A stretch of 64,000 nt of DNA. Source: Bdellovibrionales bacterium (GTDB lineage: Bacteria > Bdellovibrionota > Bdellovibrionia > Bdellovibrionales > UBA1609). Location: the NCBI GenBank assembly GCA_965219095.1, contig CBDCMT010000001.1, positions 32,001 through 96,000 on the forward strand, given 5' to 3'. Shown here one piece after another: positions 6,001 through 30,000 of the stretch; the stretch's first letter is position 1, and each line of letters starts with the position of its first letter. Position numbers: made by a program.

Positions 6001-9000
6001 CTATAAGAAGAGTTAGAAGAATTTCCTGAGGAGTCTGTACATTTTAATTCAAAGGTATGATTCCCATGCCCTAAATTAGAATAACTTTGACTTTTACTAC
6101 AAGACTGAAAAGAAGAGGCTCTCTTTTTATAGCCATGACGACATTCGTAGTTTACATCTTTTGAAGAGGGCAAAGTGAAGAGAATTTGAGTTTCTTTTGT
6201 AGGAGATGAAGGAATTTGGGCTAATTGACAATCAGGGGCTGTTGTATCAATGGTCCAAGTGTAGGATGCTTCAGAGCTTAGTCCTACTTGATTTAAAGCT
6301 TTTATTTCAAAAATATGAGAACCCTCACTTAAAATGTGAGTTTGGTATGTTTTAGAACTGCAATCCTCCCACTCTTGACCTTTCAGGCGACATTTGATCT
6401 CTTTCACTCCAGATTCCCCATCCACTACATCAAATATAAACTTCCCTCTCTGAATATTTGTGAGACTAGGTGGGCTTTTTCTCAGTACAATAAGACTTGG
6501 AGTTTTATCTTGTTGAACTGTAAAAGAGGAAGTTTTTTTATTTCCTGCTTTATCGAAAGCTTTAACATACAAAGTTTTTGTTCTTTCTGAAGCATTAAAG
6601 ACTAAAATATAAGAATCCCTACAATCAGAAAACTTTATAAAGCTTTCTGATAAAGAACAACTTGTTTCTTTTAACTCCCTATCATCTGAAATAAAAAAAT
6701 TTACTTTAAATTTCTCACCTGCTATCCAGAGATGAGAGATCTCCTTAAAGGTGATTTGAGGAGGGGTTTTATCATGAATGATAGAATCTGAATAACAATC
6801 ACTTTCCTGCTCTTCTGTCTGAAATTTTATATAAACAGATACCTCTTGATTCTCCTGTGATAGAGTCCAAGATTTTTTAATACTTTCACCTTTAGAGTAA
6901 TTTTCCCATTTCCCTCCCTTAGAACATTGCGGGTCATTAGTGATGTACATTCTCGTAGAAAAATCTCCTTCAATAGTCAAAATCACCCTTTTATCCTTAG
7001 TATAAGTATCTCCATCGTTGATCAGAAGACTCCTTGTGCTTTTAAGGATGGAATCCAAATCTCTTTGCCCAAAACTGGTTTCAGCACATGAGTTAAATAA
7101 AAAAGGTAAAGGAATGGATAAAATGATGAGAAAACTTATAAAAAGCCTTCTTATATGAATCTTTTTCATGTCTTCTTTTTCGACAAAAATGTCTCAAGAC
7201 TTTAGCCTAAACCTTGTACTTGTGTCTTTATTTTTAAAATTCTGTTTCAATTTGAGACATAAACTTGAAATAACAGAAGAAAATAAGATTGATAAAATGA
7301 TAAAAATACGATCGTTACACTTTATTTCATGTGGTTCTTTAGCTGCCGGACGTTTTTGTTATGAGTAAAAATATAAAAAAACTAAAAGTTAAACTAAAAA
7401 AAGACGCTACAAAATAAACTTTTTTAGAAAATTTGTCTACTCTTATCTCTTTTAAGGCCTTCACCTCCCCTTCTTTAGGAGCAGGAACTAAACTCTTAGA
7501 TTCAAGCAGAATTGTCTTTTTAAGCTTCTTTCTACTACGAGAAGATAGTTTTCTTGCCTCCTCAAAAGAATCTGTGGGTTCCCGGAGGTTCTGGCAGTTT
7601 TCCAAGGTTATGATATAAGGCGATTTTTATAGCTTTAGAGGTTCTAAAGCCGTAAGATTTTCTCATAGTGAGTTTTACTTTGTTGTTTAAACCCTCTACA
7701 ATCCCTGAGGAGAAGGCTTTTTTAGCCTTGAAGTAATTAAGAATAAGTAGCTTATGTCTTCGTATGGTTTTTGCTTCTCTTTTCATAGGTTCAATTTTTG
7801 AAAGCATGACTCGTCTCGTCCAACGAGGATGTCCCATTCATGGGACTTTAAAGTTCATAATTTTTCAGTAATTTTCTTTCCTATAAGAGGAGCAAGAGTG
7901 AATCCTGTGCAACTCCATCCAGCCGAAATAAGAAGATTTTTATATTTAGAATCATATTCTAAAATCCCTTGAGAATCTTTACTATAACTTTCAATAGCTC
8001 GTATTCCTCCTTCAAGGGTGGAGTTTTTCACCCAATTCAACCGATGACTGATTCGTTGTTTTGCTACATTGGCATCCCGAATGCTTAAATGTTCTAATGC
8101 TTTTTGTCGGCTATTGATTTGAGTTGCTTCAAAAAGATATCCACCCACGAATGATCCGTTCGGAAAAAAATGACCAAAAGTCCTTGAATTTTTATCAACA
8201 AATAAAGGGACTTTGGTTTGTCGATTCCTCCTAAAAAACCTGTTAACTTGAATAACTTGGGGAAAAATGTCCACCTTAGTTCCAAGAGTTTTTAATAAAT
8301 CATATGTCCATATGCCAGCAGTCAACACCAATTTTTCGCAGTTCAAAACCTCTCCTTGGCTAGTTTTAATTCCGGTAACTTTATTTTTTTTGGCCAAAAT
8401 TTCTAATACAGAAGTGTTAAGTTTTACATTGGCACCTCTTCTTTTAGAGTACCATACAAAAGCTTGTGTTGTGCTATAGGGACAAGCGTTTCCAGCACAG
8501 GGTTCATAAATGGCTACATCATCCTCATACCAGTAAAAATCAGGAAATTCTTTTTTACCTATAATTGGATCAATAATATGAAAATCCACTCCTGATGTTT
8601 TTAAAATAGAAAGATGTTCTGAAAAAGACCTAAGCTTATGACGTTTTAAAAAATACAAAGACCCTGTTCTATTAAAATGACATGGAAAGCCTACTTTTTC
8701 ATCAAAATTTACATAGAAAGGGACACTCTTGGCTGCATTTTTTGTTGTTTCTGGATTTTTATGCATAACTCTTATAAGAGATCCCCATGATCCTGTTGCA
8801 CCGCAACCAAAGCTAGATTTCTTCTCAATAAGCAAACAGTTGTAAATTCCTTTTTCAGTTAAATGATAAAGCACTGATGTTCCTACAGCTCCAGCTCCGA
8901 TGATAATGATATCGAAGTGTTTCATTTTTTTAAAAACTTTCGAAATTGTTCTAAGCTTATGGAAAAATCAGATATTTTAAGATCGCAAAGGTGTCGAGTG

Positions 9001-27000: not shown

Positions 27001-30000
27001 GGCTGCAATCCTGAAATTGCAAGATTTTCATCAATTCTTTTTTCAACATTCTGAGCACTAAGCTCTTTTAATTTTGTTTGACGGAGTATTGATTCTTTTG
27101 CATTTTCACTTAAAAGTTTTTCTACAAAATCCATGTGATTAAAACCAGTTGTAATAACAACTAAGTCATAAATTCGTTTTTCCCGATCTTTATCATATTC
27201 AATGTCAAGTACAATTTGGTTAAGAGAGTCAATGCCAATGGATCGACAAGTTCCTGGAATGATTTCCACATTTGATAAACGATCCAAATCTCTTTTAGTA
27301 AGAAAAGAGAAAACTCCCTTATCAGTGCGGTTGATAAAATTCCTCCTATCTTTTTCGGTTAATTGGAGCCAGTTTCCTTGGAAAGGATCAGTGTAGATAT
27401 GGTTTTCTGCGTAGCTTTCGCCTCGTGTATAAGTCATTGCATTAGGAGAGATGATATCGACATGAAAGCTTGGATCGAGCTGTCCTAATGTTACAGCAAT
27501 AGCTGCTGAACTTTCACCAGAACCCACTAAAGCGGCTTGAATGTTTTTTTCTTTTGTGTAATCTTCGTGGGTTTTCCAAAAGTTTTCTGTTTTTAATATT
27601 CTAGGATGGTGCGGAATACAAAAGGGGAGATGAGTTGATCCTGGACCTGTGATCACTAAACTGTCAGAAAAGTGATCAAAAAAACGTCCTTCAGAACTTT
27701 CGGCTTGAACCCTCCACCTTCCATTATCAATATCTATGGATTTAACTGCTGCATTTATATACTGAACTTCACTTTGAACTTTATGAAACACCCATTCCAT
27801 ATACTCAGCCCACATGTGATGGGAGGGAGCAGGTCGTCCTCGGTCGATCCAATCTGCATATTGATGTTTCCCAATAAAAAAACTCTGCCAAGAAAATTGC
27901 TGCATTAATGCATCCACCATGCGATTTTCAGAATCACCCCAACAAAAAGAATAATAAGGAAATCCTAAATCTTTTTCAGGAGATGTTCCCAAGGGAAGTT
28001 GACCATTTGTGTACCCAGAACCATTTCGCCAATGATGGCCTACCTCTTCTTTCTCAAAAAGGATAAGAGAAGGGACAGGAAAACCAACTTTTTTGAGAAC
28101 AAATGCTTTTGTAATGACGGCAAGTGCCTTAGGCCCCGCTCCAATAAGAGCTAAAGTTTTTTGTTCTTTCTTAGCCATAAAAACCTCCTTTTTAATTCTA
28201 AAACTTCAAGAAAGCTCAAAAAGCAACTTTACTACTACTCCATTCGTTCTATCAGTTCAAGAGATTTCTAATGAATTTATCTGCAGAAAACAAGACACAT
28301 AGTTTCTTTTTGTTTTTTGCTTACTCTCAAGAGAGGCTAATTAAAATACTCTAAAGTAGGAATTCATACAGAAGGTGAAGCTTTATCAGGAGGTGTCGTC
28401 AATTGATTTAATGTGGAAAACTTACCAGCAAAGATCAATAGAAAAGCGCAGAAGCCTTATGATAAAGACATTTATAAATTGTCTATCAAAAAGAAGGAGC
28501 CTGTAATTAGGCTCTGTAGAGCCTGTAATAAATTACAAGCTTCAGCTTCCCATTCTTCTTATTTTGACTCACAAGTTCTATAAACTTTCGTTAATATTTT
28601 CTCTATACCTAAAACATAAACCTTTCTATTAGAGCGTATGACAATTTTTCCATCATCCATTATAACAGGAGAGGAATAAGGCCAATCGGGACAACCAAAT
28701 GTTTCAAAAGAAGCTAATTTAACCAACTCACCACTTCCCCAAGAAGTAGACTTAAGCTTTAAAACATAAACCTTTCCACCAGAACTTATGACAATTCTTC
28801 CACCATCCATTATAGCAGGAGAAGATCCTATCATCTGTTTCAAAAGAAGCTAATACAGCTAACATAGTAACTCCGAAAGCATACCTCTTAAGCTTTAAAA
28901 CATAAACCTTTCTATTAGAGCGTATGATAATTTTTCCATCATCCATTATAACAGGAGAGGAATAAATCGCTTTATCTATTTGAAAAGAGACCATTTTAAC
29001 TAACTTCTTACCCTTAAGTTTTAAAACATAAACCTTTCTAGTAAAGTTTATGACAATTGTTTCATCATCCATTATAGCAGGAGAAGAATAAATCACTTCA
29101 TCTGTTTTAAAGGAGGCCATTTTAACTAACTTCTTACCCTTAAGTTCTAAAACATAAACCTCTCTATTAGAATTTATGACAATTCTTCCATAATCCATTA
29201 CAACAAAATAGAAAGGTAAACTTATAGCACCTGTTTTAAAAGAGGCCATTTTAACTAACTTCTTACCCTTAAGTTCTAAAACATAAAACTCTCTACCAAA
29301 ACTTGTAACAATTCTTTCATTATCCATTACAACAGGAGAGGTATGAATCACAGCAGTTCTTTCAAAAAAAGCCACTTCAGCTAACTTCTTACCCAAAAGC
29401 TCTAAAACATGAATCCCTCTACTAGAACGTATGACAATTTTTCCATCATTCATTATAGCAGGAGAGGAATAAATTAGACCACCTATTTCAAAAGAAGCCA
29501 CTTCAACTAACTTATTATCCCAAAAACTATCCCAAAAACCCTTAGGCTCTAAAACATAAACAACACCTCTACTAGAACGTATGACAATTTTTCCATCATT
29601 CATTATAGCAGGAGAGGAATAACTCACATCATCTAATTCTTTACTTGCATATCTGAATTTAAACTTATAAACTTCCTCTTCTTTGAAACATATTTTATCA
29701 TGAGAGTCTCCTAAAGCGTAGTATTGTGCTGACTTTTTCTGAAAGACAAAAAAGCTGGAAAAAGCAAAGATTAGACTTAAGCTCGCTAAATGGAAAAAAA
29801 TTTTTGTTTTCATAATTTACCTCCTATTGGTTTGAAAGTGTTTAATTTTTTGTTTTTAAGTCCTGTTCTCTATGTTAAGTCAAGTGAAGGACTCTTAACG
29901 TAACTGTTCAGAAAAATTCTAGTAAATTGTTGAAATTTCACTAAAAGCTCCTATGCCTATAATGTTATATGATGTTTTTCGTTTAGATTTTCAGATTTTT

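Follow-up and report, generated by a model that had tools for sequence, protein, structure and literature searches.

The hydrazine synthetases form a much sought-after family of enzymes; every new type of cluster encoding one has brought new N-N chemistry. Among the described systems, PyrN, Spb40/Tri28/AzsN and ThzN (PMC8664883, PMC12376268, 10.1101/2025.08.22.671884) join a zinc-binding cupin to a MetRS-like domain and have a partner monooxygenase and oxidase; the cupin Glu of PyrN is essential for N-N formation. In the triacsin, azaserine and dob systems (PMC10445470, PMC13061610), a GNAT enzyme beside this trio succinylates hydrazinoacetate, and carrier-bound oxidation then leads to a hydrazone or diazo group. 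The fuscazine (fuz) cluster of Microbispora fusca (PMC13149037) contains a hydrazine cassette and an ATP-grasp ligase but no carrier protein, and FuzC makes a hydrazide. A 2024 review named the decarboxylation of hydrazine-synthetase products as a missing biocatalytic step (PMC11705231).

The locus analysed here lies in a stretch of 64,000 nucleotides (the window) from a Bdellovibrionales genome (G000). The genome-wide survey's note had placed in it the trio of N-hydroxylase, hydrazine synthetase and oxidase, together with tailoring and export genes; all of these were supported, and every gene it named is an open frame at its reported place. We consider it likely that IS expansion split into three islands what was ancestrally a single cluster of nine genes, lacking a carrier protein and directed at a small N-N-bonded amino-acid metabolite. 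The pieces are probably the scattered, mostly intact remains of one pathway making and exporting such a molecule, and the chance that this pathway still works in the host is predicted to be about even or slightly better. The enzyme type is already known; the novelty lies in the gene combination, of which no description was found in the papers searched. Here, with no carrier protein, the trio is joined to a PLP decarboxylase, an oxidase resembling monomeric sarcosine oxidase (MSOX) and a position held by either a GNAT or an adenylation domain.

The synthetase gene (8922-10883, minus strand) encodes 653 aa from a TTG start and overlaps the oxidase gene by 4 nt. It shares the domain order of the PyrN group, with Cupin_2 at residues 43-111 and tRNA-synt_1g at 129-505 (Pfam), and its best PDB sequence match was PyrN-C (9L8V, E 8e-59), compared with 2e-49 for the best true MetRS. 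The cupin residues H55/H57/E61/H95, mapped by spacing, show a uniform +5 offset from H50/H52/E56/H90 of PyrN, and this H-H-E-H set is kept in 134 of the 137 aligned homologs. The HLGH139 and KFSTS445 motifs match the HLGH/KFST motifs of the described enzymes. T141, N143, Q182, D420 and N421 of PyrN are all kept, as T133, N135, Q174, D407 and N408, and PyrN Glu284 aligns to Gly276. With a predicted model (pLDDT 89.7), 9L8V took ranks 1-3 of the fold matches (rmsd about 3 A), the TM values, normalised by target, being 0.89-0.90 for PyrN-C and 0.71-0.82 for MetRSs. A housekeeping methionyl-tRNA synthetase was rejected, as the protein scored 253 bits, below the metG cut-off of 336; the host has a separate true MetRS at C2:401793, on the same contig as the window, with KMSKS and a different pocket. 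The survey's assignment of this cupin-MetRS protein as a hydrazine synthetase is hence retained on sequence and model, N-N formation itself being predicted.

The pocket code of the synthetase, APDQWMNY, shares 6/8 positions with the glycine code TPDQWMNH and 5/8 with the Microcystis serine enzyme PADQWFNY. Because none of the papers searched contains this code, the activated amino acid is extrapolated: by analogy, we think that the MetRS-like domain takes a small amino acid, probably glycine, failing that alanine or serine. The synthetase falls in a clade separate from the known didomain enzymes, in a tree where the pairing of G000 with Uabimicrobium was not resolved.

The synthetase is adjoined by an FAD oxidase of the DAO family (7855-8925, minus strand; Pfam DAO), presumed to be of the C-N-cleaving Spb39/Tri27 type. 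On its other side lie a GNAT acyltransferase (10944-11516, plus strand; Acetyltransf_3) and an ATP-grasp ligase resembling L-amino-acid ligases and DdaF (11491-12765, plus strand), which belongs to the PRK07206 subfamily (NCBIfam, 431 bits against a cut-off of 302). The ligase matched PDB 30VH (E 1.5e-65); neither 30VH nor 30VQ is named in any paper searched. The likeness to the dapdiamide ligase DdaF noted earlier holds for this subfamily region, but identity with dapdiamide A synthase was rejected (NF041595, 270 bits, far below the cut-off of 840), and the cluster genes include no other dapdiamide genes. After a gap of 11,049 bp (12766-23814), in agreement with the survey's figure of about 11 kb, follows an MSOX/MTOX-like flavoprotein (23815-24942, minus strand; NF008425, 344 bits against 257) that keeps the Cys of the covalent-FAD motif. 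Further along, the start codon of a MATE exporter (25444-26841, minus strand) overlaps the stop of a flavin N-hydroxylase of the lysine N6-monooxygenase type (26841-28178, minus strand). The best PDB match of the latter was the lysine monooxygenase 4D7E (E 6e-87), which we take to be NbtG.

The gap is filled by an IS block (12812-23814, no strand assigned), which includes an IS630-type end and small IS ends; 73% of the gap has at least two other copies in the genome. The block comprises an IS481-type element (12918-14143), an ISL3-type element (about 14740-16280), a 247-aa paralog without assigned function (17162-17905), a truncated scpB duplicate (17956-18597), a DDE_Tnp_1 element (18649-20545), an IS481-type copy interrupted by an IS3-type element (20540-22590) and an IS630-type element (22580-23620), the family names being a reading of transposase Pfam domains. 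The scpB listed by the survey is thus present, but as a duplicate that is truncated at its 5' end and keeps 213 of 311 aa, and several transposases are likewise broken. Against Rfam, positions 7000-29000 gave 0 matches.

The set had been described as cut in two; in fact there are three pieces plus one dead accessory gene, and two cluster genes, for a PLP decarboxylase and a SnoaL-like protein, had been missed. A 12-nt spacer remnant (12793-12804, plus strand), followed by an IS end, matches the spacer preceding the decarboxylase at its distant locus and marks the site of decarboxylase loss. The intact decarboxylase gene (C2:331740-333206, minus strand) lies outside the window, 287 kb away, stranded between IS elements behind a diverged ATP-grasp remnant. 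K312 in DPHKW is its PLP lysine and its orthologs match PF00282 (Pyridoxal_deC, group II fold); the decarboxylase scores far under the cut-off of every named NCBIfam model. In a quick tree, whose non-cluster rows were 43 of 77 (the loci up to L165), it groups with 12 cluster decarboxylases (SH-aLRT 99), apart from the 43 non-cluster relatives; the tree also groups G000 with Uabimicrobium (support 97), which may be an artefact because both are low-GC. The ATP-grasp remnant is 86% identical to the window copy, with dN/dS about 0.21 and changes of 3 versus 3 with 8 ties. Given this dN/dS and the unpolarised changes, the remnant reflects two once-functional copies; these values led us to reject a long neutral decay, which would have proved that the window copy was under selection, and the divergence gives no evidence for or of selection having continued after the split. 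The SnoaL-like pseudogene (24956-25435, minus strand; a 134-aa gene) retains its first 13 codons (25435-25397) and a frameshifted 3' part (25097-24956), the middle being replaced by IS ends, and no intact copy was found in the host genome. IS remnants also sever the MSOX-like gene from its upstream operon. The inverted repeat around this gene, considered as an inversion, is two IS ends, and the orientation is as in a related genome, G125. We read the window as a record of how IS expansion dismantles a biosynthetic cluster, two copies having undergone reciprocal loss.

Because the same genes are co-located in 13 other genomes, their grouping is not a matter of chance. In these relatives the set forms a single block (in one case cut by a contig end), which bears out the earlier view of the two halves as one cluster later cut by IS elements. 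In G125 both order and orientation are those of the window, and the decarboxylase stands where the IS block lies here. The synthetase, the DAO-type oxidase (37-50% identity) and the monooxygenase (46-54%; 16 kb from the synthetase in this host, in the same block in the relatives) occur in 13/13 related clusters, the decarboxylase in 12, the MSOX-like oxidase in 11 and an intact SnoaL-like gene in eight, no copy being found in the other five; a stand-alone or fused adenylation domain takes the GNAT place in three. Relatives were found by an alignment-based scan, a single-protein pattern scan giving 0/21 candidates; a 1.2-kb contig (G179), one of the 18 phylum matches, was left out. What sequence shows directly is family membership, the intact catalytic residues, a shared ancestry of the pieces and the open frames of eight genes.

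Compared with the PyrN group, the shared genes include no carrier protein, NRPS/PKS, C45 peptidase, AzsF-type dehydrogenase or diiron oxidase. A GNAT beside the trio is a feature shared with the triacsin/azaserine/dob systems, but an azaserine/dob-type carrier protein, an AzsF-type (acyl-CoA-dehydrogenase-like) enzyme and a diiron oxidase were found neither among the window genes nor in the shared set, which leaves the diazo product that had been proposed unsupported. By gene content (PMC13149037), the fuz cluster differs in its split cupin and MetRS, two ligases, Arg hydroxylase and tRNA deacylase, whereas here there are one ligase, a GNAT or adenylation domain, the PLP decarboxylase, the MSOX-like oxidase, SnoaL and MATE.

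A less probable but serious alternative is that the same ancestral cluster is now a silent relic, its transcription units cut, one gene killed and the frames open since decay is recent. The SnoaL-like pseudogene, the stranded decarboxylase and the large share of the genome in repeats of at least five copies (31%) favour this reading, as does, weakly, the count of sigma-70-like sites in the 60-bp divergent gap region (0 found, 0.9 expected), the promoter scan being uninformative. However, neither stops nor frameshifts occur in the eight remaining genes (about 10 kb), which keep their catalytic residues and are full-length (each against three orthologs), although neighbouring genes are broken and the unique stretches of the host genome have an N50 of 7-8 kb. 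Moreover, no copy of the destroyed SnoaL-like gene was found in 5/13 related clusters, and split clusters can work, e.g. that of negamycin (10.1101/2025.07.31.667836).

For a working pathway, all steps are proposed by analogy. The monooxygenase would make N6-hydroxylysine from lysine, the MetRS-like domain would adenylate a small amino acid and esterify the hydroxylamine, the zinc cupin would rearrange the ester to an N-N bond (a Lys-N-N-Gly adduct), and the DAO-type oxidase would free hydrazinoacetate. In an order that is a guess, and without a carrier, the GNAT may then acylate the hydrazine as Tri31/AzsS/DobB do, the ATP-grasp ligase may make an amide or hydrazide as FuzC does, with an amine probably supplied by the PLP decarboxylase, and the MSOX-like enzyme may oxidise a C-N bond, e.g. 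hydrazine to hydrazone. MATE would export the product, most plausibly an antagonistic antimetabolite.

Decarboxylation could also come first, changing the hydroxylamine. It is possible, though rather unlikely, that the PLP enzyme makes a cadaverine-like diamine, and that N-hydroxylation and coupling then yield an aminoalkyl-hydrazine without free hydrazinoacetate. The near-constant presence of the decarboxylase, the use of aminohexylhydroxylamine by PyrN, the Gly276 replacement and the known synthetases acting on N-hydroxy-putrescine and N-hydroxy-diaminopropane (PMC11705231; PMC12376268) speak for this order. Against it, the best solved relative of the monooxygenase is a lysine monooxygenase, the equivalents of the PyrN residues binding the lysine amine and carboxyl (D407/N408) are kept, and the lysine-using serine enzyme likewise has no acidic residue at the Glu284 position.

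A chimeric assembly of related strains, as the source of either the three-island layout or the second ATP-grasp tail, appears very unlikely. The assembly is of metagenome type with very many IS copies, the two ATP-grasp copies differ as described, and the depths in run X2 (4.0 for the remnant, 6.9 for the window copy) are too low to separate cells. However, among the X2 contigs, one joins the remnant to the start of the decarboxylase and a second holds the window copy as far as 12811; contamination is 0.56%; low-copy duplicated segments of 80-94% identity are frequent in the host genome (144 alignments, including some tandem repeats); and, as the remainder of the 5 kb has no diverged contigs, four runs revealed no complete diverged sister cluster. 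In the synthetase region, contigs of the four runs showed no letter differences, other letters being confined to a single contig, which corresponds to the known remnant. The two loose ends seen at 8914 and at 12561 do not occur in the genome and were set aside as belonging to other organisms. Finally, a siderophore-type hydroxamate pathway without N-N chemistry beside a MetRS paralog is highly improbable: decarboxylase, N-hydroxylase, acyltransferase and ligase are present, the first three recall desferrioxamine DesABC, and a desferrioxamine-pathway decarboxylase is among the decarboxylase PDB matches (E 9e-34), but the synthetase keeps the cupin Glu needed for N-N formation, synthetase and oxidase are constant among the clusters, and the annotated shared genes include no IucA/IucC synthetase or TonB receptor.

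We return to the N-N-bonded metabolite and its possible use. The survey's "predatory bacterium" did not stand as worded, as neither flagellin (PF00669) nor chemoreceptor (PF00015) was found in the host genome (94% complete); flagellin is present in 39/60 same-family genomes. Seven type IV pilus ATPase matches exceeded the T2SSE cut-off, a trait not specific to predators. The proposed weapon-against-prey role is putative and draws on the distribution of the cluster, which is found mainly in Bdellovibrionota and in the Uabimicrobium class of cell-engulfing planctomycetes, a class with two cultured phagocytic predators. It is a long shot that these two unrelated predator groups share, through horizontal transfer, a chemical tool in the form of an undescribed hydrazine-derived antimetabolite that disables prey or competitors (e.g. 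by poisoning PLP enzymes), and that this IS-riddled, non-flagellated lineage has retained it, scattered over three pieces, as a compound for defence or directed at a host. The product and the predation role are directly testable, because the complete genome of the cultured phagocytic predator Ca. Uabimicrobium amorphum SRT547 carries the cluster intact.

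The cupin-MetRS-like protein of the window (8922-10883, minus strand) had been proposed as a hydrazine synthetase in the genome-wide survey's note, and both sequence and structure comparisons strengthened this proposal. By sequence, its closest solved relative was the C-terminal domain of PyrN, the PDB entries concerned being identified as PyrN in bioRxiv 10.1101/2025.08.22.671884. The same domain was the closest fold to the predicted model (pLDDT 89.7), with TM scores of 0.89-0.90 compared with 0.71-0.82 for MetRSs. The cupin residues H55/H57/E61/H95 are spaced as H50/H52/E56/H90 of PyrN, whose E56 is essential. 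The HLGH and KFSTS motifs and the equivalents of PyrN T141, N143, Q182, D420 and N421 are likewise retained, while the true MetRS of the host genome sits at another locus. Judged from sequence and model, the protein is a predicted hydrazine synthetase, a member of an already known family.

The eight-residue pocket code APDQWMNY was found in the window, in all 17 fetched Bdellovibrionota loci and in 103 of 139 aligned rows, two of which were MetRS controls. Published or derived codes used for comparison were TPDQWMNH for glycine and SADQWYGH for threonine (PMC12376268), SFVQALNR for glutamate and PADQWFNY for the synthetase of a Microcystis strain whose enzyme reportedly uses serine. By extrapolation, the substrate would be a small amino acid, most likely glycine. 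Synthetases with APDQWMNY and an Arg at pocket position 9 also occur in Thermoanaerobaculia/Acidobacteriota (L052-L067), in a different cluster context where none of the window's partner genes was detected.

As the survey's note had placed them, all listed genes were re-found in two islands. In the left one, a D-amino-acid-oxidase-family FAD oxidase (DAO) and the synthetase lie on the minus strand with a 4-nt overlap, and a GNAT and an ATP-grasp gene are divergent. The right island carries a monomeric sarcosine oxidase (MSOX)-like oxidase, a MATE exporter and a lysine N-monooxygenase, all on the minus strand. GC of the cluster genes (0.34-0.38) is in line with that of the genome (0.34). The gap between the islands spans 11,049 bp, 73% of it multi-copy in the genome, and contains several IS types, a 247-aa protein without assigned function or Pfam match (17162-17905; four partial paralogs at other genomic sites) and a 5'-truncated second scpB (17956-18597), which shares 90% identity with the intact scpA-scpB locus of contig C1 (L038:7527-9248). 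Elsewhere in the window are a beta-propeller repeat protein (28752-29813) from a family with several genome copies and a 996-aa Ig-repeat protein (4179-7169) with partial paralogs, both of which may be exported, as well as a low-GC ORF of 1011 aa without Pfam match (33943-36978).

Among 400 further genomes from the phylum, 18 matched the synthetase at E<=1e-60, the same number the survey had given, and none of 27 from the host's own family did; the monooxygenase had no match among 60 family genomes. Seven of 17 fetched phylum loci held the extended set, nine a shorter, different cluster and one a fragment. A pattern scan of genome contigs retained 80 of 104 confirmed loci, 11 of which combined synthetase, monooxygenase, ATP-grasp and decarboxylase genes. 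Together, the two sources gave 13 other genomes with the set. Synthetase, DAO and monooxygenase occur in all 13; ATP-grasp and decarboxylase in 12, the contig of the remaining one ending early; MSOX-like oxidase and MATE in 11 each (MATE in 12 when a further analysis is included); and a SnoaL-like gene in eight. GNAT was found in ten and an adenylation domain in three, never both together. In G125, order and orientation are identical to the window, with the decarboxylase at the position of the IS block; in Uabimicrobium amorphum and L050 the sole difference is an inverted synthetase-oxidase pair. The U. amorphum cluster (L043) is uninterrupted and spans about 10.5 kb. This gene content and order show that the two islands are one cluster cut by IS elements, as had been proposed; the observation is real and its support is now stronger than before. 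Two related clusters also have ORFs with weak Gln_deamidase_2 matches (L023:6052-7344 and L026:4545-5387), absent from the window.

The named genes of the original list stood, but the decarboxylase and SnoaL-like genes had been overlooked. An intact group II PLP decarboxylase (C2:331740-333206) is flanked by IS elements on both sides, 287 kb away from the stop codon of the ATP-grasp gene. It shares 43-53% identity with the cluster decarboxylases and groups with them (quick tree, 13 rows, SH-aLRT 99). The wider decarboxylase family is not cluster-bound, since only three of its 80 loci have a synthetase or monooxygenase nearby, all three in known clusters. Ahead of the displaced gene is a 192-bp ATP-grasp tail with an internal stop, 86% identical to the window copy, and the window retains 12 nt of decarboxylase-side spacer before an IS end. 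The join between ATP-grasp remnant and decarboxylase was also present on a contig from a second sequencing run (X2, of the same study as the best-matching run). With a dS of about 0.46 and a dN of about 0.10 between the two tails, at least this part once existed as two working, diverged copies, each losing what the other kept. IS ends and a frameshift disrupt the SnoaL-like gene between the MATE and MSOX-like genes, and no intact copy turned up elsewhere in the genome; this is real decay, but of a gene that was not found in five of the 13 relatives either.

By analogy to the s56-p1, triacsin and azaserine pathways (PMC10445470 and PMC13061610), N-hydroxylation, adenylation with O-acylation, zinc-cupin rearrangement and oxidative cleavage would yield a hydrazino acid. 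The GNAT may then acylate it, as do Tri31/AzsS/DobB in the same sources; because an adenylation domain replaces GNAT in three genomes, this acylation appears to be biosynthetic and not mere resistance. The ATP-grasp ligase could form an amide or hydrazide, for which FuzC is a precedent (PMC13149037). The decarboxylase would supply an amine, the MSOX-like enzyme would perform further C-N oxidation, and export would be the last step. A diazo-type product, the other option raised initially, is less likely because carrier and diiron machinery are absent from the cluster. Free hydrazino acids inhibit PLP enzymes.

A second Bdellovibrionota cluster type shares the pocket code (L028-L036, in G175, G267, G400, G349, G110, G280, G295, G221 and G203). 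Typically, a LysR-like gene in divergent orientation precedes the synthetase, DAO and monooxygenase genes, after which come genes for a 210-aa protein and for either a methyltransferase or an EamA transporter; the G400 monooxygenase is spread over two frames. Speculatively, these clusters might make an N-methylated hydrazino acid.

No prior description of the window cluster was found in the literature searched, Matsuda 2024 lying outside that scope. By title and abstract, none of the papers matching Bdellovibrionota and hydrazine treated such clusters, and papers matching hydrazine synthetase names did not mention 'Bdellovibrio'. The PMC13149037 supplement had no match for Bdellovibrio, Uabimicrobium, Planctomyc or Oligoflex, and 11 of the 15 supplementary files of PMC13061610 gave none. 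The literature covered also included PMC8664883, PMC11705231, PMC13755311, PMC11870529 and a negamycin preprint. New, within the literature searched, are the architecture and host range, with possible overlap in the 830-sequence list of bioRxiv 10.1101/2025.08.22.671884, which may contain these synthetases.

The 13 genomes comprise eight Bdellovibrionota, three of the Uabimicrobium class, one labelled Cyanobacteria and one without taxon label, a census biased by scan patterns derived from an alignment of the same proteins and by related, non-independent genomes. Four of 401 Planctomycetota genomes carry the synthetase, three of them among the nine of the Uabimicrobium class. Two strains available in culture, SRT547 and HlEnr_7, are predators that feed by phagocytosis; the word 'hydrazine' does not occur in a preprint on planctomycete predators. 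Because the synthetases of these two strains nest inside Bdellovibrionota sequences (quick tree: 8 rows, 100; 14 rows, 98), transfer between the two groups is suggested. Only seven of 400 sampled Bdellovibrionota have the extended set, and therefore it is not core predation machinery. That the product is a predation weapon seems unlikely to us, and this reading can be tested in the cultured strain.

The host shares its phylum with the Bdellovibrionota-labelled genomes. The survey's label 'predatory bacterium' was not supported: neither flagellin nor chemoreceptor was found in this genome, although flagellins occur in 39 of the 60 genomes examined from its family. It does encode pilus ATPases and a single DacB-type peptidase, and 41% of its bases are repeated (31% at >=5 copies). 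The lineage would thus appear to be host-associated or sedentary. The flagellin-less genomes of the family are mostly small (1.2-2.4 Mb), which suggests a reduced, non-swimming clade.
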